Source: Escherichia coli
GTDB lineage: Bacteria > Pseudomonadota > Gammaproteobacteria > Enterobacterales > Enterobacteriaceae
DNA length: 64,000 bases
Strand: one strand, 5' to 3'
Assembly (NCBI RefSeq): GCF_016903815.1
Contig: NZ_CP069973.1
Shown: positions 1 to 26,915 of the stretch, in pieces
How the letters are laid out: every line of letters starts with the position of its first letter
Numbering within the stretch: position 1 is the stretch's first letter
Notes under the pieces: generated by a model
Told to the model about the DNA's origin: nothing
The model's database searches: none
The model's input: the letters and a program-made list of their open reading frames with translations, nothing else
Translations under genes and position numbers: made by a program

Positions 1-219
1 GCTGGCGGACACTGTACCGGCAAAATCAATGCCTGGCACCATTGGAAAGTGCCGGACGATAGGCCCGCGGCCCGTAATAGCCAGTGCGTCTTTGTAGTTG
101 ATAGATGAACAGTCGACATTGACCTCCACATCCCCCTGTGGCAGCTCGCTTTCAGCGATTTCAGCAATTTGGGCACTGTGGCGGTCATCCATCTTACTGA
201 TTAATAATGATTTAAACAT
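1..219 (-). CDS. Partial CDS (N-terminal part; continues beyond window start): YhdH/AcuI-like MDR-superfamily NADPH-dependent oxidoreductase
   Basis: Reverse-strand translation from ATG at 217-219 reads MFKSLLISKMDDRHSAQIAEIAESELPQGDVEVNVDCSSINYKDALAITGRGPIVRHFPMVPGIDFAGTV, which aligns with the N-terminus of E. coli YhdH/AcuI (SSLNYKDALAITGKG...PMIPGIDFAGTV). Not the K-12 yhdH locus, so probably island cargo. Confidence 0.6.
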   Translation of the reverse strand, partial: MFKSLLISKMDDRHSAQIAEIAESELPQGDVEVNVDCSSINYKDALAITGRGPIVRHFPMVPGIDFAGTVSAS

Positions 220-872
220 TTTTTTTCTCGTCTTTCTGGTTTGATGTCATTGAGCTATAAAGTAGTCAATAAACAATATTGACCGATCGTCTAATAATCA
301 ACGCTGATATCCCAGTGTTTGTCAGAAAACAAGAATTGCTTTTCTTTTCATCAGGTTAAATCTATCTTTTTTGATTTATATCAAACCAGATTCGGTCTTC
401 AATTATATAGGCATCAATGTTAGCGGTCCTACAAGATACGCAGTCGATGCTTCAGGGCGTACTGATGAAATAAAACAAGTAGGCTGAGATTAGTTGGTCT
501 GCTCATCGCTCACAGCGGACCTTCAGCTTCGTTAGCCAAGCGCTGACATAGTTACCGATGTAGCGTGTTAATCTGTCGGGAGCATAGCCGAAATCACTTA
601 ATCCATTAGACTTCACCTAAAACTGCAAAAATTACCGTCTTTGTCACACTCACCGAGTTTAATCAAACTAACACTGTACATAGTGCGAACAAGAGCCAAC
701 CAGAAAGACTGTTCAGCATCAACAGTGAAGTTTTTCCCCGCCACTTCCCCGCAATTCCTCCGCAGTTTTCCCACTAGAGAGTTCGACACATCCCTTGCAT
801 ACCAACGCTTTGATTCAAATCTCGGTAGTGCATCCAATTAGTAGAATATGTGTTTTTCGATAAATGCTCCGA

Positions 873-1232
873 TCACTTTTTCGTGGATCTCAACTGAGCG
901 TGAGAAGCAGATTGTTTACGAGCCAACCGCTTAATGTGGGTGCGTAGCGTCAGATTATTACGCTCAATGCGTTGGGTGAATATTTTGCCGGTCAGATGCT
1001 TATTCTTCGGCACCACCCGGCCATAGCTGTCCCAGTCATCGCTGGTGAGCATGCCGATGTTGAAGGGTGTAAGCAGTGCCAGTAGCTCCCGGCACGTTTG
1101 ATTGGTTCGGGGACCAAAAGTGTAGGCCAGTACACCGCCTGTTTTGGTGTTGTACGCGTACCAGAGCCAGTGTAGCCGGGCTTTACTGCCAACGTAGCTC
1201 CATTGCTCATCAAGCTCGCAGATAAGCGCCAC
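873..1232 (-). CDS. insB: IS1-family InsB-like transposase segment (probably expressed as InsAB' by -1 frameshift, or N-terminally truncated)
   Basis: 119 aa ORF ...CELDEQWSYVGSKARLHWLWYAYNTKTGGVLAYTFGPRT... matches the IS1 InsB catalytic region (compare [25 protein letters not shown]...). Confidence 0.7.
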   Translation of the reverse strand: MALICELDEQWSYVGSKARLHWLWYAYNTKTGGVLAYTFGPRTNQTCRELLALLTPFNIGMLTSDDWDSYGRVVPKNKHLTGKIFTQRIERNNLTLRTHIKRLARKQSASHAQLRSTKK

Positions 1233-1258
1233 ATCAGCATGGGCAACAGGCGAAGAAG

Positions 1259-1531
1259 TTATTTGCGTTGGCGCGAGTTTTTTAAAGTCCGGATGATGGT
1301 GTTAATACCAATTTTCAGTGTCCTGGCGGTATCGCGAACCCCGGCACCATTAAAGGCCATTTCAGTGATCATCTCTTTCATACCCGGCTTACGTGCTTGA
1401 TAAGTATAAGTGAGCTGAAACACACGGTGGCAGTCACGGCAGCGAAATCTGTCACGGCCTTTAGGGTTCTGACCATGGCGGTAAACCTGAGCTGACTGAC
1501 AACGGGGACAATGAATATTAACGCTGGCCAT
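1259..1531 (-). CDS. insA: IS1-family InsA-like protein (zinc-finger/HTH transposition regulator)
   Basis: 90 aa MASVNIHCPRCQSAQVYRHGQNPKGRDRFRCRDCHRVFQLTYTYQARKPG...; CxxC...CxxC pattern and colinearity with canonical IS1 InsA. Confidence 0.8.
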   Translation of the reverse strand: MASVNIHCPRCQSAQVYRHGQNPKGRDRFRCRDCHRVFQLTYTYQARKPGMKEMITEMAFNGAGVRDTARTLKIGINTIIRTLKNSRQRK

Positions 1532-1783
1532 GAGATAACCTCAAAAGCCCGTATTATACATCAGATTCAACCAATTAGAGGCATCACCCTTTCCTACATT
1601 CGTAGGACTTTGATTACATATAGCAAGGGTTAATTCTTATATACATAGAATAAATTAGGAATATAATGAATTTTATCGTGACGACCTTATTTATAATTAA
1701 TTTATATCGTCAGAGAAATTAGTGTCCACAACATGAAGCCTTACAAAGAGATTCTATGATTTAAAAAAAATAAGAGCCAGCTT

Positions 1784-3253
1784 ATGCATATCGATTCGAC
1801 TGAAAAAAATAATAAACAAAAGTTGGGCTTGCTTGCGCTAACATCCATTGTCGTGAGCTCGATGATCGGCAGCGGCGTTGACGGACTCCCCCAGAATATG
1901 GCGGAGAATTCTGCCGTGGGCCCGGTGGCGATAGCATGGATAGTCTGTGGTATCGGCATGTTTTTCATCTCCAGAACTTTTATCGTGCTGTCAAACATTA
2001 GACCTGATCTCCAGTCAGGAGTTTATATGTATGCCCGGGAAGGGTTCGGCCGATTTACGGCATTTAACGTCGCCTGGGGCTACTGGCTGATGACTATATT
2101 CAGCAACGTCGCCTTTGCCATTATGGTGATGGATACGCTGAATTATTTCTTACCAGGTGATTTCAAGGGAGGGAACAATATTCCTTCCGTTATCGGTGCC
2201 TCTTTGCTGATATGGGGATTCAACTTTTTAGTCCTCTCCGGTACCCGCATTGCCGGGTCGATTAACATCGTCGGCACGCTGGCCAAACTGATCCCGCTGG
2301 TGGCCTTTATTATTATTCTCATGCTGTTTATGAAGTACACCACGTTCGCAGATAACGTCTGGGGGCACAGCGCGAGTAAGGCCAGTCAGGACCTAGGCTC
2401 TATTTTCTCACAGGTAACTTCACCGCTTAGCGTGGCACTCTGGAGCTTCATCGGCGTTGAGGGGGCTGTCGCTCTTTCCGGTCGGGCCAAAAATAAACGC
2501 GACGTGGGTAAAGCCACATTCATTGGCTTCGTTGTATCACTGATTATCTGTCTGCTGGTCTCCATCCTGCCGTTTGGCGTGCTGACTCAACATGAGCTCA
2601 GCGCAATTCCAACCCCATCCACCGCCGGTATTCTGAAGATTGTTGTCGGTGAATGGGGGAAGATTATGATTATCTTGGGGGTGCTGATTTCGGTGCTTAC
2701 CAGCTGGCTGGCGTGGACCATCATCTGCGCCGAACTGCCTATGGTGGCCGCGCAGAACGGCACATTCCCGAAACCGTTCAGCAAAAAAAATGTGAAGGGT
2801 TCGGCCTCGGTTTCGCTTTATATAAGCAGTGCGTTTATGCAAATCGTCGTACTTCTGGTCTACTTTTCTAACGATGCCTGGCTTGCAATGCTGGCTATCT
2901 CTACCCTGACCGTTTTACCTGCGTATTTAATGACCACGGCATACCTGTTTAAACTATGTATTAGCGGCGAGTATGCCAGCTATACCACGAATCACAGCCG
3001 CAGCGCCGCGCTGGTCAGCAGTATTATCGGCTTTGTATTCTGCCTGTTTATGTTCTACGCCAGTGAAATCAAATATCTGGCGATGGTTCCGGTGCTGCTT
3101 ACGCTGGGCGTGCCCCTGTTTATCTGGGCAAGAAAAAAAGACGATCGCGCAGATAAAATATTTACGCTACGCGAACTGGCATTTTTTATTTTACTGCTGG
3201 TCCTCGACATCATTGTTTTTATTCTACTGCATTATAAAACGATACATTTTTAG
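1784..3253 (+). CDS. ArcD/YdgI-type basic amino acid/polyamine antiporter (APC superfamily, APA family), copy 1
   Basis: 489 aa; ATG at 1784 with AAGAG RBS; N-terminal KLGLLALTSIVVSSMIGSGV..LPQNMA motif and GVEGAVALSGRAKNKRDVGKAT motif typical of ArcD/YdgI arginine:ornithine-type exchangers; multiple hydrophobic helices. Confidence 0.85.
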   Translation: MHIDSTEKNNKQKLGLLALTSIVVSSMIGSGVDGLPQNMAENSAVGPVAIAWIVCGIGMFFISRTFIVLSNIRPDLQSGVYMYAREGFGRFTAFNVAWGYWLMTIFSNVAFAIMVMDTLNYFLPGDFKGGNNIPSVIGASLLIWGFNFLVLSGTRIAGSINIVGTLAKLIPLVAFIIILMLFMKYTTFADNVWGHSASKASQDLGSIFSQVTSPLSVALWSFIGVEGAVALSGRAKNKRDVGKATFIGFVVSLIICLLVSILPFGVLTQHELSAIPTPSTAGILKIVVGEWGKIMIILGVLISVLTSWLAWTIICAELPMVAAQNGTFPKPFSKKNVKGSASVSLYISSAFMQIVVLLVYFSNDAWLAMLAISTLTVLPAYLMTTAYLFKLCISGEYASYTTNHSRSAALVSSIIGFVFCLFMFYASEIKYLAMVPVLLTLGVPLFIWARKKDDRADKIFTLRELAFFILLLVLDIIVFILLHYKTIHF

Positions 3254-3357
3254 TCCAGATTAATTCACAGCAAGTTAAGGTGACGATAATGTCTGTTTCT
3301 TGGGCATGACATCCTCACAGTTAAATACTATCTGAACAGTAACAGTGGAGACACCTA

Positions 3358-5727
3358 ATGAAATTTAACCACAATCTTTTATTTATTTCCTCACAATATC
3401 TTGATGGCGACAACCCTTCGCAGCAGGTACTGGAAGAGCTTCAAACCGAACTCGCGGAACGCGGTTTTAAAATTCATATCACGCACCAGATCTCTGATGG
3501 ATTAAAAATCATCGAAAAAAGCCCCCAATACAGCGGGATTGGTTTTTACTGGGAGCCAGACAATCCGACCTTTGCAGAAGAGCTACAGCACTTTATCAGC
3601 ATATTCCGCAAAAGAAATGCCACGACGCCGCTGATAATTTTCTCAGAACAGAATATTACCGATCGTATCCCACTCGACGTCTTAAAAGAGGTCAGCGAAT
3701 ATGTTTATCTGTTCTCTGAATCCGCAGCCTTCACTGCCAATCGACTGTACTCCTTAGTCCACCGCTATGCGGATAAGCTTCTTCCTCCCTACTTTAAAAC
3801 CCTTAAGGACTTTACCGAGGACGGTGACTATTACTGGGACTGCCCGGGGCATATGGGGGGAATGGCCTATCTGAAACATCCTGTTGGCATTGAGTTCATT
3901 AACTTCTTTGGCGAAAACATGATGCGCGCTGATATTGGCGTGGCTACCGCGGAGATGGGGGATTATCTGATCCACGCCGGACCGCCTAAAAAATCGGAAG
4001 AAATTGCGGCCCGACTGTTTGGCTCTGATTGGACCTTCTACGGTGTTTCCGGCTCATCGGGGTCGAACCGTATTGTGGCCCAGGCTGCGGTTGGCGCAGA
4101 TGAAATTGCCATTATTGACCGAAATTGCCACAAGTCACTTAATCATGGCCTGACCTTGTCTCAGGCAAGGCCGGTTTACCTGAAACCTACCCGCAACGCG
4201 TGGGGGCTGATTGGGCCTATCCCGACCGGACGCCTGAAGAAGGCCAGTATTGATGCGCTGGTGGCAAACAGCCGACTGGCATCTGGTGCGGTCAGCCAGT
4301 CCCCGTCCTACGCCGTGGTAACCAACTGCACCTATGATGGCTTCTGTTATAACGTGAACGATGTAGTCAGACACCTGGGTGAAAGCGCACCGCGCATCCA
4401 TTTTGATGAAGCATGGTATGCCTATGCGCGTTTCCATCCGCTATACCAGAGTCGCTATGCAATGGACGCGGAGGAAACGCCAAATCGTCCAACCCTATTC
4501 GCCGTACAGTCCACCCATAAAATGCTGCCCTCACTCTCCATGGCCTCAATGATTCATGTGAAGAAAAGCGATCGCGCGCCGCTTAATTTCGATGACTTTA
4601 ACGATGCCTTTATGATGCACGGCACGACCTCACCCTACTACCCGATCATTGCATCAATTGATGTGGCAGTAAGCATGATGGAGGGTGAATCCGGTTATTC
4701 GCTTGTGCAGGAGTCAATTGAAGAAGCGATTGCCTTCCGTAAAGCCGTGGTCAGCGTCAAGCGCCAGCTCCAGGAGCAGGAAGGTGGTGACGCCTGGTTC
4801 TTCGATGTGCTTCAGCCAACCGAAGTGCAGGACAGCGATTCTGGGCAGCGATACAGTTTTGAAGAGGCACCCGTATCGCTGCTGAGCCACAGCGCCGACT
4901 GCTGGTCGCTGCGCTCCGGTGAGCGCTGGCACGGTTTTGCCGATGATGATCTGGTCGAAACCAACAGTATGCTCGATCCAGTAAAAGTGACCCTGACTTG
5001 TCCAGGGATCGGCCCGAAGGGAGAATACCAGAAAAACGGTATTCCGGGATATTTGCTGACCCGTTTTCTCGATGACCGTCGCATTGAAATTGCCCGTACT
5101 GGTGACTACACCGTGCTGATCCTGTTCTCCGTCGGCATCACCAAAGGCAAATGGGGAACTCTGATTGAAAGCCTGCTGGCCTTTAAAAAGCATTACGACA
5201 ATGACGATCTGGCCACAGATGCTATCCCGTCGCTGAAAGCGCATTCTCCACACTACGACACGCTAACCCTCAAGGAGCTATGTCAGATAATGCATGAAAA
5301 AATGGATGAGCTGGAGCTGATGTCGCATATCAACGACGCGGTAAACACCGATCCGGAACCAGTTATGACCCCGGCAGAAGCCTATCAGAAAGTCGTACGC
5401 TACAAAACCGAGCATATCCGGCTGGATGATTTTAGCGGCAGAATTGCCGCCAGCATGCTCGTCCCATATCCCCCAGGCATTCCTGTACTGATGCCGGGCG
5501 AACGGATGCCGCAAGGTAACAAGGGCATTATTGGCTATCTGCGCGCCCTGCAGGAATTCGATAAGCAATTCCCAGGTTTTGAACATGAGATCCAGGGCGT
5601 TAACGTCGATGAAGACGGGGACTTCTGGGTCAGAGCGATTGTGGAAGAAGAACGCGATGGGCAGTCGCTACCCGGCCACATAACCTTTAAACGCCAGGTC
5701 TCTGGTATTAAAAAGGGCCGCCAGTAG
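3358..5727 (+). CDS. PLP-dependent Orn/Lys/Arg decarboxylase, AdiA/CadA/SpeF family (fold-I, with N-terminal wing domain); substrate not assignable from sequence
   Basis: 789 aa; GGAGA RBS before ATG 3358; conserved blocks shared with E. coli AdiA (YWDCPGHMGG, SGSSGSNRIV, DRNCHKSLNHGL, VVTNCTYDGFCYN, HFDEAWYAYARF, STHKML with the PLP-binding Lys, ASIDVAVSMMEG, MLDPVKVTL, KGKWGTL, PYPPGIPVLMPGE, FPGFEHE). Longer than AdiA (755 aa) with a distinct C-terminal tail. Confidence 0.9.
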   Translation: MKFNHNLLFISSQYLDGDNPSQQVLEELQTELAERGFKIHITHQISDGLKIIEKSPQYSGIGFYWEPDNPTFAEELQHFISIFRKRNATTPLIIFSEQNITDRIPLDVLKEVSEYVYLFSESAAFTANRLYSLVHRYADKLLPPYFKTLKDFTEDGDYYWDCPGHMGGMAYLKHPVGIEFINFFGENMMRADIGVATAEMGDYLIHAGPPKKSEEIAARLFGSDWTFYGVSGSSGSNRIVAQAAVGADEIAIIDRNCHKSLNHGLTLSQARPVYLKPTRNAWGLIGPIPTGRLKKASIDALVANSRLASGAVSQSPSYAVVTNCTYDGFCYNVNDVVRHLGESAPRIHFDEAWYAYARFHPLYQSRYAMDAEETPNRPTLFAVQSTHKMLPSLSMASMIHVKKSDRAPLNFDDFNDAFMMHGTTSPYYPIIASIDVAVSMMEGESGYSLVQESIEEAIAFRKAVVSVKRQLQEQEGGDAWFFDVLQPTEVQDSDSGQRYSFEEAPVSLLSHSADCWSLRSGERWHGFADDDLVETNSMLDPVKVTLTCPGIGPKGEYQKNGIPGYLLTRFLDDRRIEIARTGDYTVLILFSVGITKGKWGTLIESLLAFKKHYDNDDLATDAIPSLKAHSPHYDTLTLKELCQIMHEKMDELELMSHINDAVNTDPEPVMTPAEAYQKVVRYKTEHIRLDDFSGRIAASMLVPYPPGIPVLMPGERMPQGNKGIIGYLRALQEFDKQFPGFEHEIQGVNVDEDGDFWVRAIVEEERDGQSLPGHITFKRQVSGIKKGRQ

Positions 5728-5745
5728 GCGGGGGAAAGAACAATA

Positions 5746-5771
5746 CCGTCGGATCGCCTGCAATCCGACGG
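5746..5771 (+). promoter_or_regulatory. Intercistronic stem-loop between the decarboxylase and the downstream antiporter (possible attenuator or mRNA processing/stability element)
   Basis: Inverted repeat CCGTCGGAT-cgcctgca-ATCCGACGG (9-bp stem) in the 74-bp spacer; no strong T-run follows. Confidence 0.4.
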
Positions 5772-5801
5772 CAATATTATAGAATAGCTGAGGGAAACGT
5801 T

Positions 5802-7301
5802 ATGGCAGAGCAATCTTCAGATGTAAAAAATAGTGACAATAGCGCCGGAGGACATAAGCTGGGGCTTATATCCCTCATCGCTATTGTCGTTAGCTCCATG
5901 CTGGGAGGCGGCGTTTTCAGTCTGCCGCAAAACACGGCGGCCTCTTCTGCACTAGGGCCAGTAATCATTGCATGGATTATTGCCGGGATCGGTATTTATT
6001 TTATCGCAAACTCCTTTCGCGTACTATCAGATCTGCGCCCGGACCTTCAGGCTGGAGTGTATATGTATGCCCAGGAAGGTTTTGGTTCCTTTATTGGCTT
6101 TAACGTCGCCTGGGGCTACTGGCTGATGACCGCATTTGGCAACGTTGCCTTTGCGGTAATTTTAATGGATGCTTTTAATCAGTTTATGCCGGGGGTTTTT
6201 ACGGATGGTAATAATCTGAACTCCATTATCTGCGGCTCAGTGCTGATCTGGGGCTATAATTTTCTTGTTCTGTCCGGGACGAAAGTGGCCGGATTTGTTA
6301 ACACCTTGGGAACCATCGCCAAGCTCGTCCCTCTGATCCTATTCGTATTACTGCTGGGTGTGCTGATCGATTATTCGGACCTGTTTAAAAACTTTTGGGG
6401 AGAATCACCCGCGATCCTCAGTGGCAACGGAAATGACGCCGCACCAGTATCGCTGCTGTCTCAGATTCTGGCACCGATGACCGTAACGCTCTGGGCCTTT
6501 ATTGGCGTCGAGGGAGCGGTTGTTCTATCCGGACGTGCCAAAAATAAACAGGACGTAGGGAAAGCCACACTGATCGGCTTTCTGCTGGCGCTAATTATTT
6601 ATATGTTAATGTCCATTCTGCCGTTCGGTGTAATGCCTCAGGCAGAACTAGCGCAGGTCAGTAACCCCTCTACCGCAGGCGTGCTCGCCCACGTTGTCGG
6701 TCAGTGGGGCGACTGGCTGATGAGCGCGGGGCTGATTATTTCTGTTCTGGCCGGCTGGCTTGCCTGGACCATGCTATGCGCTGAAATACCGATGGTAGCA
6801 GGACAGAAAGGCGCTTTCCCGCGCGCGTTTGCCCGAACGAACAGTAAACAGGCGGCCAATGTGTCACTGTGGGTTAGTAGCTTTGTGATGCAGGCGGCCA
6901 TGTTACTTGTTTATTTTTCAAATAATGCTTGGACCACCATGTATAATATCAGTGCGCTGATGGTTGTTCCGGCCTATATTACCACCACGCTGTATCTGAC
7001 CAGTATTTGCAGAAACGGAAAATATGATCAGTATGCAAAAAAAGGCCGCAGGCTGGCTTTGTCCAGCGGTGTTTTAGGCTCGCTATTCTGTCTGTTTATT
7101 CTTTACGCCAGCCAGATTGAGTATGTTGCATTAATTCCTATCCTGTTGACCTGTGGTCTGCCGGTCTTTATCTGGTCAAGAAAAGAAAAAAATGATGGTC
7201 AGCCGATATTTACCAAAAAAGAGCTGATTTATCTGATTATGCTGTTGCTGTGCGATATTATCGTCGTTGCCCTGTTTATTGGTGGATATTTAAAGGTATA
7301 A
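5802..7301 (+). CDS. ArcD/YdgI-type basic amino acid/polyamine antiporter (APA family), copy 2 (paralog of 1784..3253)
   Basis: 499 aa; GAGGGA RBS; same motifs as copy 1 (KLGLISLIAIVVSSMLGGGVFSLPQNTA, GVYMYAQEGFG, FNVAWGYWLMT, GVEGAVVLSGRAKNKQDVGKAT) with long collinear identity. Confidence 0.85.
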   Translation: MAEQSSDVKNSDNSAGGHKLGLISLIAIVVSSMLGGGVFSLPQNTAASSALGPVIIAWIIAGIGIYFIANSFRVLSDLRPDLQAGVYMYAQEGFGSFIGFNVAWGYWLMTAFGNVAFAVILMDAFNQFMPGVFTDGNNLNSIICGSVLIWGYNFLVLSGTKVAGFVNTLGTIAKLVPLILFVLLLGVLIDYSDLFKNFWGESPAILSGNGNDAAPVSLLSQILAPMTVTLWAFIGVEGAVVLSGRAKNKQDVGKATLIGFLLALIIYMLMSILPFGVMPQAELAQVSNPSTAGVLAHVVGQWGDWLMSAGLIISVLAGWLAWTMLCAEIPMVAGQKGAFPRAFARTNSKQAANVSLWVSSFVMQAAMLLVYFSNNAWTTMYNISALMVVPAYITTTLYLTSICRNGKYDQYAKKGRRLALSSGVLGSLFCLFILYASQIEYVALIPILLTCGLPVFIWSRKEKNDGQPIFTKKELIYLIMLLLCDIIVVALFIGGYLKV

Positions 7302-7443
7302 GTCCGAGTTAAATCTTTACTGGGCTAGTAATGCCGCCTTTTAAACAAGAAGGGCGGCAATCTTACTGAAATTAGTATGCTGCAAATCGGTAATGCTGCC
7401 AACTTACTGATTTAGTGTATGATGGTGATTTTAAGGTGCTTGC

Positions 7444-7719
7444 GTGGCTTCCATTTCCATCAGATGTCCTTCCTGCTCCGCTACTGAAGGCGTGGTGCGT
7501 AACGGCAAAAGCACTGCCGGACATCAGCGCTATCTCTGCTCTCACTGCCGTAAAACATGGCAACTGCAGTTCACTTACACCGCTTCTCAACCCGGTACGC
7601 ACCAGAAAATCATTGATATGGCCATGAATGGCGTTGGATGCCGGGCAACTGCCCGCATTATGGGCGTTGGCCTCAACACGATTTTACGTCACTTAAAAAA
7701 CTCAGGCCGCAGTCGGTAA
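7444..7719 (+). CDS. insA: IS1 InsA
   Basis: 91 aa [91 protein letters not shown]. Confidence 0.95.
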
Positions 7720-8141
7720 CCTCGCGCATACAGCCGGGCAGTGACGTCATCGTCTGCGCGGAAATGGGCGAACAGTGGGGCTATGTCGGGGCTAAATCGC
7801 GCCAGCGCTGGCTGTTTTACGCGTATGACAGGCTCCGGAAGACGGTTGTTGCGCACGTATTCGGTGAACGCACGATGGCGACGCTGGGGCGTCTTATGAG
7901 CCTGCTGTCACCCTTTGACGTGGTGATATGGATGACGGATGGCTGGCCGCTGTATGAATCCCGCCTGAAGGGAAAGCTGCACGTAATCAGCAAGCGATAT
8001 ACGCAGCGAATTGAGCGGCATAACCTGAATCTGAGGCAGCACCTGGCACGGCTGGGACGGAAGTCGCTGTCGTTCTCAAAATCGGTGGAGCTGCATGACA
8101 AAGTCATCGGGCATTATCTGAACATAAAACACTATCAATAA
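7638..8141 (+). CDS. insB: IS1 InsB (expressed as InsAB' fusion by frameshift)
   Basis: 167 aa ORF ...[40 protein letters not shown]...[10 protein letters not shown], canonical IS1 InsB. Confidence 0.95.
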
Positions 8142-8156
8142 GTTGGAGTCATTATC

Positions 8157-9667: not shown

Positions 9668-10133
9668 AGTGCGAAATATCTGAGGATGCTGGATAGCTTC
9701 AGGCAAGAGAATAATGATTCTTGCAGATGTGTTTTTCCGGATACAAAAACAAAAGTAAAAAATTGCAGCGCCAGGCCACCTTTCAAAGCAGGGAGGCTTG
9801 TACCGCGTCGAAAATTTCAGCCAGTTAATGTAATTGTCTGAACCAGGCACTTCGCCCGGGCAGGAGAAGGAGCGTGGTTGCGGTCATCCTGTATACTGAA
9901 GTCGTTATGAAGGAATAATACAAATAATTGCCCGTTTTCTCTGTACGATAGAGGCAGGTGTGTATGATTGCATCACTATGTTTTTGTGATATAAAAAACT
10001 AAATGGTGAGATATGCATTTTAAAATATAACAAAAATCACCATGAAATAAGAATAATTATCCACGGAGAACATAAACTGCAGACTGTTACAATGCATGCT
10101 GTTCATCTTGACAATGTCGGTAATGACTCCAAC

Positions 10134-10637
10134 TTATTGATAGTGTTTTATGTTCAGATAATGCCCGATGACTTTGTCATGCAGCTCCACCGATTTTGAG
10201 AACGACAGCGACTTCCGTCCCAGCCGTGCCAGGTGCTGCCTCAGATTCAGGTTATGCCGCTCAATTCGCTGCGTATATCGCTTGCTGATTACGTGCAGCT
10301 TTCCCTTCAGGCGGGATTCATACAGCGGCCAGCCATCCGTCATCCATATCACCACGTCAAAGGGTGACAGCAGGCTCATAAGACGCCCCAGCGTCGCCAT
10401 CGTGCGTTCACCGAATACGTGCGCAACAACCGTCTTCCGGAGCCTGTCATACGCGTAAAACAGCCAGCGCTGGCGCGATTTAGCCCCGACATAGCCCCAC
10501 TGTTCGCCCATTTCCGCGCAGACGATGACGTCACTGCCCGGCTGTATGCGCGAGGTTACCGACTGCGGCCTGAGTTTTTTAAGTGACGTAAAATCGTGTT
10601 GAGGCCAACGCCCATAATGCGGGCAGTTGCCCGGCAT
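10134..10637 (-). CDS. insB: IS1 InsB
   Basis: 167 aa, identical in translation to the InsB at 7638..8141. Confidence 0.95.
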
Positions 10638-10831
10638 CCAACGCCATTCATGGCCATATCAATGATTTTCTGGTGCGTACCGGGTTGAGAAGCGGTGTAA
10701 GTGAACTGCAGTTGCCATGTTTTACGGCAGTGAGAGCAGAGATAGCGCTGATGTCCGGCAGTGCTTTTGCCGTTACGCACCACGCCTTCAGTAGCTGAAC
10801 AGGAGGGACAGCTGATAGAAACAGAAGCCAC
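10556..10831 (-). CDS. insA: IS1 InsA
   Basis: 91 aa [37 protein letters not shown]..., canonical InsA. Confidence 0.95.
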
Positions 10832-11360
10832 TGGAGCACCTCAAAAACACCATCATACACTAAATCAGTAAGTTGGCAGCATCACCCAATCTGCTGACAG
10901 ACGAAGATAATGAACCCGTTATGGTTTTTAACGGAGAGAGGAATGTACTGGCAGACAGTCTGAAACCACAGCCTCTGATTCTTCCGGTCAAGGGAAAATA
11001 AGCGTAATGTTCATCACCAGATTATGTACGATGAGTTTTCCACTGTTTATAGCAATTATCTTGCTAATAACCAGACAGGAGTAACCAGACCAACCGAAAA
11101 CACCGGGAAGGTGATTACCCGCTGGCAGAGGAAATCCGGTTTTTTTTGATGTCAGCCATAACGTGTTTGACAATAAAGCATCATGAAAGGGTGTTAATGA
11201 GTCCATGGGATAATTCATAAAAATAATTTACTGTGTTATCCTTTTCAAAAGAAATATTCAGAAGATAACCCCTGGCTGACAACCAGGGGAAGGGGGCATT
11301 AACAGTGTTATTATTGGTGAATAAATTATTACTTGTGTGCAGGATACACTAATGCAATAT

Positions 11361-24782: not shown

Positions 24783-25652
24783 TTATTTCGCCTGTGGTGC
24801 AGTTTTGCTGGTGGATTGAACACGTAAGTGATGCAGCGCGCGTAAGCATTGATCCTGGGTTAGCGGTTGGGCGTTATTTGCCGCTACGGTGCGAACATAG
24901 ACCTGACATGGTACACCCGCGAGTTTTTTCAGTCGTGGGCTGAAATCAAGCATTCGGCGAGTGATCGCCTCCACTTCTTTACCCGGCGTTGCTTCACGCG
25001 TTTTCACCACTGCGCCGCTAAATTGTTCTTTGCCACTTTCATCTTTAAAGCGGTAAAGCACCGCCAGATAATGGTTGAACAAGTTATGTTTCCATTCCGG
25101 TTGGGAATAGGTGTCATATTCCAGATTGCCATTGTCCTGGCAGTCAACGTCGTATAACGGCAGGAAATCTAACAGTGAAGTAATACGTAATGCCAGTTCA
25201 CGCATTTCCGCATTATTAATTGCATGAATGATTGCTCGCGCCAGCATTTCAATCTGCAATTCATTGATGACTAACTCACATTTGCTACTGTCATGTAGCG
25301 TTAATACGAAGGTAAGATTTTCACCCTGATTATCGGTAAGTTCCAGCGTGTTAACCCGACGATTAATATCGGCATTTTTAAGCTCATCAACCAGAATTTC
25401 TGGTATATTTTCTGCCATTTTCTTAATGACTTTATCGCGAGCTTGCTCATACTGAAGGCGTGCAGCAGCATCCAGTTTATGCTTTTGATGCAGACGGCTT
25501 TCCAGCGCAATCAGAAGGTCGCGCAGTTCCATGACAGACAGAAAGAACAACGATTCTTTATTGCGAGGCTCTTTAATTTTCAGCGCCAGTGCAATGAAAT
25601 TATTACTCTTGCGAATAACACCGGTATTAACACCCTTGATGCTTATGGCCAT
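24783..25652 (-). CDS. yjeJ: Uncharacterized protein YjeJ
   Basis: 289 aa ORF in conserved position between yjeI and epmB. Confidence 0.8.
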   Translation of the reverse strand: MAISIKGVNTGVIRKSNNFIALALKIKEPRNKESLFFLSVMELRDLLIALESRLHQKHKLDAAARLQYEQARDKVIKKMAENIPEILVDELKNADINRRVNTLELTDNQGENLTFVLTLHDSSKCELVINELQIEMLARAIIHAINNAEMRELALRITSLLDFLPLYDVDCQDNGNLEYDTYSQPEWKHNLFNHYLAVLYRFKDESGKEQFSGAVVKTREATPGKEVEAITRRMLDFSPRLKKLAGVPCQVYVRTVAANNAQPLTQDQCLRALHHLRVQSTSKTAPQAK

Positions 25653-25886
25653 GTAGGTTCTCCCTAACCATTTCTCAATTCAATAATTAATTTTAATTTA
25701 TAAGCCAGATAAATGGGCTTGGTAGTAATAGTTGTTAAAATAACATAAATAGCCGTGCTCACTCTATATAAACAGAAAAGAAAGGTTAATTATTGGTGTT
25801 GGTTATATAAAAAGTAATAACAGCAATGTATATGAATAATTAAAGGTTATGCAACGTGCAAAGATTAAACTTCCCTGTTTAATCAG

Positions 25887-26915
25887 TTACTGCTGGCGTA
25901 GCTGGAGATCCAGCGGCGTTTTGCTGGGTTCGCCGCCAATTTCTCGCGCCAGTTTAGGCACCAGATATCCCGACACCAGTGTCAGCAACTCACGCATAAT
26001 CTGCCGTGCTTCGTCATCACTCACCATAAAATGCGCCGCGCCCTGTACTTTATCGAGCACATGCAGGTAATACGGCATCACGCCGGCATCGAACAACGCA
26101 TTACTCAGGTTTGCCAGCGTTTGTGCGTTATCGTTCACGCCACGTAACAGAACGCTCTGGTTGAGCAAAGTAACGCCTACCCGGCGCAACTTAGCCATCG
26201 CCTGACGGAATGTTTCATCTATCTCATTGGCATGGTTGATGTGATTCACCAGCAAGATTTGCAGCGTAGAATGTGAAAAGCGTTCAACCAGCGCATCTGT
26301 GATGCGTGCCGGGATCACAATCGGCAGACGGCTGTGAATCCGCAGACGTTTGATATGCGGGATGGCTTCCAGTTGTGTGAGCAACCAGTCCAGCTCGTGA
26401 TCTTTCGCCATCAGCGGATCGCCGCCGGAGAAAATCATCTCGTCCAGTTCCGGATGCGCAGCAACATACTCAAGTGCAGTCTGCCAGTTACGCTTGTTGC
26501 CCTGATTTTCGGCATAGGGGAAGTGGCGACGGAAGCAATAGCGGCAATTTACCGCGCAGCCGCCTTTGACCAGCAAAAGCGCCCGGTTGTGGTATTTATG
26601 CAACAAACCTGGCACTACGCTGTGCTGTTCTTCCAGCGGGTCGGTGGAGAATCCGGGCGCGACGACAAACTCATCTTGCGAGGTAATTACCTGACGCAAA
26701 AGCGGATCGTTCGGATTGCCTTTCTCCATGCGATCGATAAATGAGCGGGGCACACGCAGGGCAAACAGCTTTTTGGCGCTGCATCCGGCCAACAGTTTTT
26801 CGTCCGCGTCTATATTCAAAAGACGCAGAAGTTCATCAGGATCGGTCACAACATCGGCAAGTTGCGTTAACCAATCTTCTCTGGATGGGGTATTTAGGGT
26901 TACAATATGCGCCAT
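25887..26915 (-). CDS. epmB: EF-P beta-lysylation radical SAM protein (lysine 2,3-aminomutase-like) EpmB
   Basis: 342 aa; radical SAM CxxxCxxC motif (GGCAVNCRYCFRRHF). Confidence 0.93.
   Translation of the reverse strand: MAHIVTLNTPSREDWLTQLADVVTDPDELLRLLNIDADEKLLAGCSAKKLFALRVPRSFIDRMEKGNPNDPLLRQVITSQDEFVVAPGFSTDPLEEQHSVVPGLLHKYHNRALLLVKGGCAVNCRYCFRRHFPYAENQGNKRNWQTALEYVAAHPELDEMIFSGGDPLMAKDHELDWLLTQLEAIPHIKRLRIHSRLPIVIPARITDALVERFSHSTLQILLVNHINHANEIDETFRQAMAKLRRVGVTLLNQSVLLRGVNDNAQTLANLSNALFDAGVMPYYLHVLDKVQGAAHFMVSDDEARQIMRELLTLVSGYLVPKLAREIGGEPSKTPLDLQLRQQ

Follow-up and report, generated by a model that had tools for sequence, protein, structure and literature searches.

In Escherichia coli, the promoters of the acid-inducible decarboxylase/antiporter operons cadBA and adiA are reportedly repressed by H-NS, and CadC and AdiY act as the activators of these systems. 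Another decarboxylase/antiporter operon, speFL-speF-potE, is controlled through a leader peptide. Insertion sequences can enter into the control of silenced operons as well: IS1 and IS5 insertions are said to occur upstream of the H-NS-silenced bgl operon, and IS1 insertions, which prefer AT-rich targets, can create or activate promoters, bgl being an example. For horizontally acquired DNA, the closest genome-wide data are those of Hustmyer et al. 2022 (PMC9765446), who mapped H-NS, StpA and RNAP in strain CFT073 by ChIP-seq; about 33% of the CFT073 lineage-specific genes were H-NS-bound in that study.

We analyzed a 64-kb stretch of E. coli DNA (the window), in which an IS1-family element is followed by a 195-bp leader and by an operon with the gene order antiporter-decarboxylase-antiporter (Table 1). 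Both antiporters are ArcD-like; the first matched TIGR00905 above the cut-off, at 486.7 bits, and against the AdiC model the two scored 145-155 bits, below its cut-off of 574. The decarboxylase matched the NCBIfam models for AdiA, LdcC, CadA and SpeF, with scores below the cut-offs for AdiA (740 of 1167 bits), CadA (562 of 1056 bits) and SpeF (425 of 1310 bits). Like cadBA and adiA, the locus has an AT-rich upstream region before an Orn/Lys/Arg-family decarboxylase that is linked to an APC-superfamily antiporter, and H-NS is present on it in vivo, as read from per-gene averages of the published CFT073 ChIP-seq. Unlike them, it has two paralogous antiporters placed around a decarboxylase that scores below the AdiA, CadA and SpeF family cut-offs, an IS1 directly upstream, and no CadC- or AdiY-type regulator gene adjacent to it. 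The initial annotation had compared the region with the cad and adi operons; this comparison holds for the gene families, which are all that the analogy draws on, but not for the individual proteins or for a neighboring regulator, and it is by this analogy that acid or lack of oxygen might be expected to induce the operon.

Table 1. Features of the leader, the operon and its flanks (positions are those of the window unless an orthologous locus is named)
Feature	Position	Strand	Basis
IS1-family insertion sequence, 765 bp	824..1588	-	NCBIfam transpos_IS1; alignment with plasmid copies
Leader/promoter region of the operon, putatively shortened from a longer native control region	1589..1783	+	Composition; orthologous spacers
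Short hairpin TCCTAC-ATTC-GTAGGA followed by CTTTGATT, predicted, weakly terminator-like	1592..1607	+	Terminator scan; inverted repeat
Best sigma-70-like candidate promoter (P1), TATACA-16-TATAAT	1640..1667	+	10/12 consensus matches
18-codon ORF (MNFIVTTLFIINLYRQRN), AGGA 5 nt upstream	1666..1722	+	Sequence
Diverged counterpart of the orthologue block, GTGACG-19 nt-TATATC	1678..1708	+	Leader alignments; direct repeat
Shine-Dalgarno-like AAGAG, 7 nt upstream of the start codon at 1784	1772..1776	+	Sequence
First antiporter, 489 aa, basic amino acid/polyamine antiporter family (CFT073 c4502; WP_001331566.1)	1784..3253	+	TIGR00905
Orn/Lys/Arg-family decarboxylase, 789 aa (c4501)	3358..5727	+	NF011603; closest to AdiA
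Second, paralogous antiporter, 499 aa (c4500)	5802..7301	+	TIGR00905, 493 bits
GC-rich hairpin past the last gene, probable operon terminator	7332..7359	+	Sequence
Canonical IS1, 768 bp, closing the operon unit	7389..8156	+	IRL facing the operon; NCBIfam match, ORF 7638-8141
AraC-family regulator genes of orthologous loci	L004 3022-3807; L006; L054; L007 5169-5975; L009 1616-2407		Cupin + HTH_18

The segment from 1400 to 3400 matches CFT073 at 100% identity (NC_004431.1, about 4.288-4.290 Mb), as it does numerous further ExPEC genomes; the leader corresponds to 4,289,716-4,289,910 of NC_004431.1. In CFT073, the operon unit lies in an island beside yicI/yicJ, where we assigned locus tags by gene length and order with exact matches: the antiporter genes are those of 1500 and 1470 nt, and c4495 (1302 nt) and c4497 (2383 nt) likewise match the lengths of the MFS gene and of a frameshifted yicI, respectively. 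Of 5426 complete E. coli genomes, 495-509 (~9%) contained the leader and the start of the first gene at an identity of at least 99%, and the nearest protein outside E. coli is 89% identical. The distribution and the IS-flanked island bear out the xenogeneic origin that had been assumed for the region. Our literature search with the CFT073 locus tags c4494-c4505 and the protein accessions, and in GI-selC papers and CFT073 TSS maps, returned nothing on the operon. The same island of CFT073 carries defense-system cargo: ~7-10 kb upstream of the operon (L001 3176-5217 and 5770-7681) are Qat anti-phage genes (qatC, qatD and a KAP NTPase), and the stretch also holds a SLATT-domain/nucleotide-binding pair.

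The leader begins immediately after the end of the IS1-family element and ends immediately before the ATG of the first antiporter. Its left limit was set by alignment with plasmid copies of the IS1; on the right, the 489-aa ORF has its first start codon at 1784, and alignments with orthologous proteins begin at residue 1. These limits agree with those of the initial annotation, and both of the AT runs quoted there were found, TTTATAATTAATTTATATCG at 1690-1709 and ATTTAAAAAAAATAAGAG at 1759-1776. The description of the ~200 bp between IS1 and ATG as strikingly AT-rich was also correct: the leader has 28.2% GC compared to 50.9% over the whole window, and a GC content this low or lower occurred in just 0.17% of all 195-bp segments in a scan of the 64 kb. 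TpA steps make up 13.4% of its dinucleotides vs. 4.6% window-wide, placing it in the top 0.34%. The low-GC patch itself extends slightly past the leader, spanning ~1552-1845 (~300 bp) and overlapping the final ~35 bp of the IS1 and the initial ~60 bp of the first antiporter gene. Elsewhere in the 64 kb, GC falls to 30% or below at just three places, 184-396, 9967-10162 and 25624-25894, the first of them upstream of a truncated alcohol-dehydrogenase gene and just to the left of the IS1. Along the leader and the operon, whose body is 49-51% GC (51% in the decarboxylase gene), the GC profile shows AT-rich patches at 1550-1850 (31%), 3050-3500 (39-40%) and 6950-7400 (40-43%).

An AT-biased spacer of unusual length upstream of the first antiporter was found in 14 of 14 orthologous loci. 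These spacers measure 434-801 bp at 18-38% GC, 11-22 points below the GC content of their own operons, in hosts of about 36-54% GC; the long, AT-rich spacer is therefore a conserved property of the operon, and by its length the E. coli leader would therefore be a truncated remnant of one. The antiporter-decarboxylase-antiporter order is kept in Citrobacter, Klebsiella sp., Proteus, Providencia, Hafnia, Commensalibacter, Alcaligenes and Bordetella, and metagenomic relatives of the operon reach 89% identity. Order and spacing are conserved across Enterobacterales, Alcaligenaceae and Commensalibacter. In one metagenomic orthologue (L102, 76% identical; region 1-1237), IS3-family transposase genes lie 263 bp upstream of the first antiporter, in what looks like an independent instance of an IS-flanked operon.

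We detected no homology between the E. coli leader and the orthologous leaders, even that of the 89% identical relative, the best matches being 11-mers with E-values of about 0.3, and no match of the leader to plasmids. Because no orthologous leader aligns, we describe the leader as native from its position and composition; its donor is unsampled. One of the 11-mers, AGGGTTAATTC, occupies 1626-1636 in the distal leader and equals the ribosome-binding-site context right before the Citrobacter antiporter ATG (L002, -14 to -4); it is near-identical in Proteus, lies ~150 bp before the E. coli ATG, and has an E-value of 0.27 in a small database. In Proteus and Alcaligenes, the operon is directly preceded by AraC-family genes, encoding a cupin and an HTH_18 domain; in Bordetella trematum such a gene is found ~4 kb away on the opposite strand. 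These neighbors are candidate native regulators. The E. coli unit and the Klebsiella/Citrobacter-type loci do not contain an AraC-family gene.

The IS1-family element upstream of the leader carries insA-like and insB-like ORFs on the minus strand, with NCBIfam transpos_IS1 matches to the ORFs 1259-1531(-) and 873-1232(-), and its IRL end abuts the leader. Two plasmid copies, 99% identical to it, define its ends, the match starting with GGTAGTG at 824 and stopping with ...GGCATCACC at 1588. Comparison of the flanks, TCAAATCTC at 815-823 and CTTTCCTAC at 1589-1597, revealed no target-site duplication, whereas a 99% identical plasmid copy (L099) does carry an 8-bp duplication, CTTTTCCT. The junction therefore points to an IS1-mediated rearrangement and not to a simple insertion. 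The same junction was present in every complete E. coli genome that bears the operon. The DNA to the left of the IS1 (221-823) lies upstream of the truncated alcohol-dehydrogenase gene; we considered it as the missing distal part of the leader and rejected this, as it has no similarity to any orthologous locus. This left flank is present in 402 genomes, compared to about 495-509 for the operon.

The IS1 elements on either side of the operon are different members of the family, both with IRL inward. A composite transposon was likewise rejected, since the flanking elements differ and both the inner and the outer junctions lack target duplications. Downstream of the operon, two canonical IS1 copies (7389-8154 and 10121-10886), 98% identical and inverted, enclose ~2 kb. 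Some E. coli strains have acquired extra IS1A or IS3 insertions in or beside the leader. In NT1F25 (L090), an IS1A is situated ~10-25 bp before the antiporter ATG and an IS2 lies within the decarboxylase gene; in one E. coli lineage or more, decay of the operon is under way. In MINF_9A an IS1A, and in E21 an IS3-family element, is located at or inside the old IS1 (loci L092 and L093).

For protein binding at the locus, we used the CFT073 values (PMC9765446 Data set S1E), which are per-gene averages over coding regions and not leader-resolved, and in which genes count as H-NS-bound above a cut-off set at 0.07 of the highest per-gene signal (PMC9765446 Text S1). The H-NS occupancy of c4502 (1470 nt), the first antiporter gene, is 0.106 in the wild type, 0.096 without rfaH and 0.089 without stpA, and it is 0.020 without hns and 0.016 without hns and stpA; StpA occupancy of the gene is 0.084. 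For c4500 (1500 nt), the second antiporter gene, H-NS occupancy is 0.116. As in the xenogeneic silencing described for CFT073 (PMC9765446), both genes are on the list of H-NS/StpA-bound genes; unlike it, their occupancy of 0.106-0.116 is low compared to about 0.3-0.4 in strongly bound islands, and the middle gene of the operon, c4501, is missing from the list of H-NS-bound genes. By way of comparison, the values for araC and yicJ are 0.089 and 0.33 (PMC9765446). Occupancy on the operon is modest, that of c4502 being 1.5 times the cut-off, and the pattern of bound and unbound genes mirrors the GC profile, with AT-rich patches around the 51%-GC decarboxylase gene. Extended H-NS filaments are not expected here, because the AT patch is ~300 bp long and the coding DNA is about 50% GC; for the latter reason, binding looks patchy and centered on short AT-rich spacers rather than spread as a multi-kb filament.

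The high-affinity H-NS 10-mer TCGATAAATT was not notably enriched. The leader region contains a single match with two mismatches (1670-1679, minus strand), and window-wide the 10-mer was barely enriched, with 76 matches vs. 60.9 expected and 4 of 100 shuffles reaching 76; such a match is a supportive criterion for H-NS binding and not an obligatory one. Thus, of the proposal of an H-NS-bound promoter, the binding part is upheld by the ChIP-seq signal of c4502, which exceeds the cut-off, depends on hns and is accompanied by StpA, but not by motif content. The leader stands out against its surroundings, while the operon body, at 49-51% GC, is not AT-rich. The best sigma-70-like match of the leader, P1, is at chance level: a score of 10/12 was reached by 12% of random 195-mers of the same first-order composition in a simulation, so the match is not evidence by itself. 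P1, with a predicted start near 1675 and a 5' UTR of ~109 nt, is nonetheless a plausible promoter from its sequence.

We consider it probable, though well short of certain, that the leader is an IS1-truncated promoter and leader region that acts as a short nucleation patch for H-NS and StpA and so keeps the operon quiet in laboratory culture. Positions 1589-1783 would be what is left of the original 5' control DNA of an acquired operon of three genes, cut to 195 bp by the IS1-mediated rearrangement, with the loss of the distal part of a spacer of the orthologous size and of any adjacent regulator gene. The remnant would have kept a ribosome-binding site together with one or more candidate promoters of the sigma-70 type, of which P1 is the best. 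Its extreme A+T and TpA content would make it the nucleation patch, and together with the weaker patches within the operon unit it may hold nucleoid proteins over both antiporter genes, whose transcription H-NS and StpA would keep low under laboratory conditions. The composition of the leader, the IS1 junction and the longer orthologous leaders are observations from the genomes, and the occupancy of c4502 and c4500 is established for CFT073 by published ChIP-seq. From these data we infer that H-NS binds the leader itself; repression of a leader promoter by H-NS, the use of P1 or another start, and a signal that relieves repression, if there is one, are further suppositions of the model.

The alternative that survives best is that the leader is a generic AT-rich, promoter-bearing spacer, in which case its AT content would explain the landings of IS elements and the weak H-NS signal would be non-functional background binding. 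The low occupancy relative to the cut-off would fit such a spacer, as would an H-NS motif that is not enriched, a promoter match not above chance and the IS1A and IS3 insertions in or beside the leader of some strains, given the preference of IS1 for AT-rich DNA. However, the GC content of the leader is 22 points under that of the operon, a larger difference than is the norm between E. coli genes and the DNA between them; each of the 14 orthologues, from hosts of differing GC content, again has an unusually long spacer with a strong AT bias; and the H-NS signal is hns-dependent and mirrored by StpA. We judge a generic spacer unlikely.

We think it improbable that the operon is transcribed from the IS1, either from an outward promoter in the IS1 end or by read-through, with the leader serving as a mere 5' UTR. 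The IS1 does contain an outward site on the plus strand, ATGAGA-16-TATTAT at 1530-1557, which points toward the operon, and the fixation of the junction in every operon-bearing genome and the known capacity of IS1 to create or activate promoters, as at bgl, would both suit transcription from the element. However, this site matches the consensus at 9/12 positions, a score that is common by chance, and the leader's own candidate is better. The hexamer at the IS1 end, TTAGAG (1575-1580), is poor as a -35 element and merely 14 nt from the nearest -10-like hexamer, TACATT, and the predicted hairpin with its T-rich tail comes straight after the IS1 end, where it may act as a terminator. The likeness to bgl is that an IS1 end lies ~50 bp upstream of a candidate promoter, within an AT-rich, H-NS-prone control region. 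Unlike at bgl, H-NS is still found on the adjacent gene and activation by the IS1 is putative; moreover, the element is fixed in all carriers and came with the rearrangement instead of a simple insertion.

A block common to six orthologous leaders bears on a further alternative. It has the form TTTACR-17 nt-TATAYN, is located about 65-100 bp before the antiporter ATG, and might serve as a promoter that depends on an activator or as a site for a regulator. Across the six loci (L002, -100 to -62; L005; L096; L101; L102; L103), both hexamers are preserved, with a spacer that differs in L102, and the -10-like hexamer often lacks its final T. Its diverged counterpart in E. coli encloses a second TATAAT, at 1692-1697. 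One could thus envision an orphaned, essentially dead promoter, from which the IS1 removed an AraC-type activator and its upstream sites, leaving the operon as a silent, decaying passenger. An IS-bounded unit of three genes with no regulator gene within, AraC-family genes upstream in some orthologues, the degeneracy and 19-nt spacing of the block in E. coli, and IS insertions in the leader and decarboxylase gene of some strains are all compatible with this scenario. It is nevertheless very improbable in our estimation, as none of the three ORFs is disrupted in the window or in almost any of the ~495 genomes, where identity is at least 99%, and the closest relatives of the operon (74-89% identity) likewise lack an adjacent AraC gene.

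Control through a leader peptide or a structured 5' UTR that senses a substrate amino acid, in the manner of SpeFL, can be dismissed as hardly credible: in its favor are the AGGA before the 18-codon ORF and the presence in L005 and L002 of small ORFs that end in ..NLY.. and are about as far from the ATG, but the start of the ORF overlaps the -10 of P1, the same DNA block has no start codon in L096, frames and stops differ in L101, L102 and L002, and the RNA shows no sign of structure, with folding no better than that of shuffles (z = +1.29 and -1.03) and an Rfam scan of positions 1-8000 returning nothing relevant and one chance-level sRNA match elsewhere. The start-less block of L096 and the differing frames therefore indicate conservation at the DNA level, and the apparently synonymous-type changes that had made a conserved leader peptide a candidate were undone by L096, L101 and L102. 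The ORF is probably not a functional leader peptide. Like speFL-speF-potE, the locus combines decarboxylase and antiporter genes in one operon and has a small ORF in the leader; unlike there, orthologues do not preserve the small ORF as a reading frame, no RNA structure is predicted and there is no Rfam match.

Returning to the truncated, H-NS/StpA-held leader, we can extend this reading speculatively. The rearrangement may have cut the module from its native activator and left an 'orphan' promoter held by H-NS and StpA, so that the operon would provide extra acid or stress resistance in ExPEC only once H-NS has been displaced, as might happen in the host, with the IS1 having rewired expression in a bgl-like manner. 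We regard this extension as improbable. If it is true, carriers of the island among ExPEC would gain an amino-acid-dependent acid- or stress-resistance system. The leader itself is a further example of an AT-rich, H-NS-occupied control region of acquired genes and changes no concept. The antiporter-decarboxylase-antiporter operon is of more interest than its leader, being conserved over several families, uncharacterized, and carried by ~9% of complete E. coli genomes, and studies of its regulation must reckon with the loss of most of the native upstream DNA from the E. coli copy through the IS1 rearrangement.
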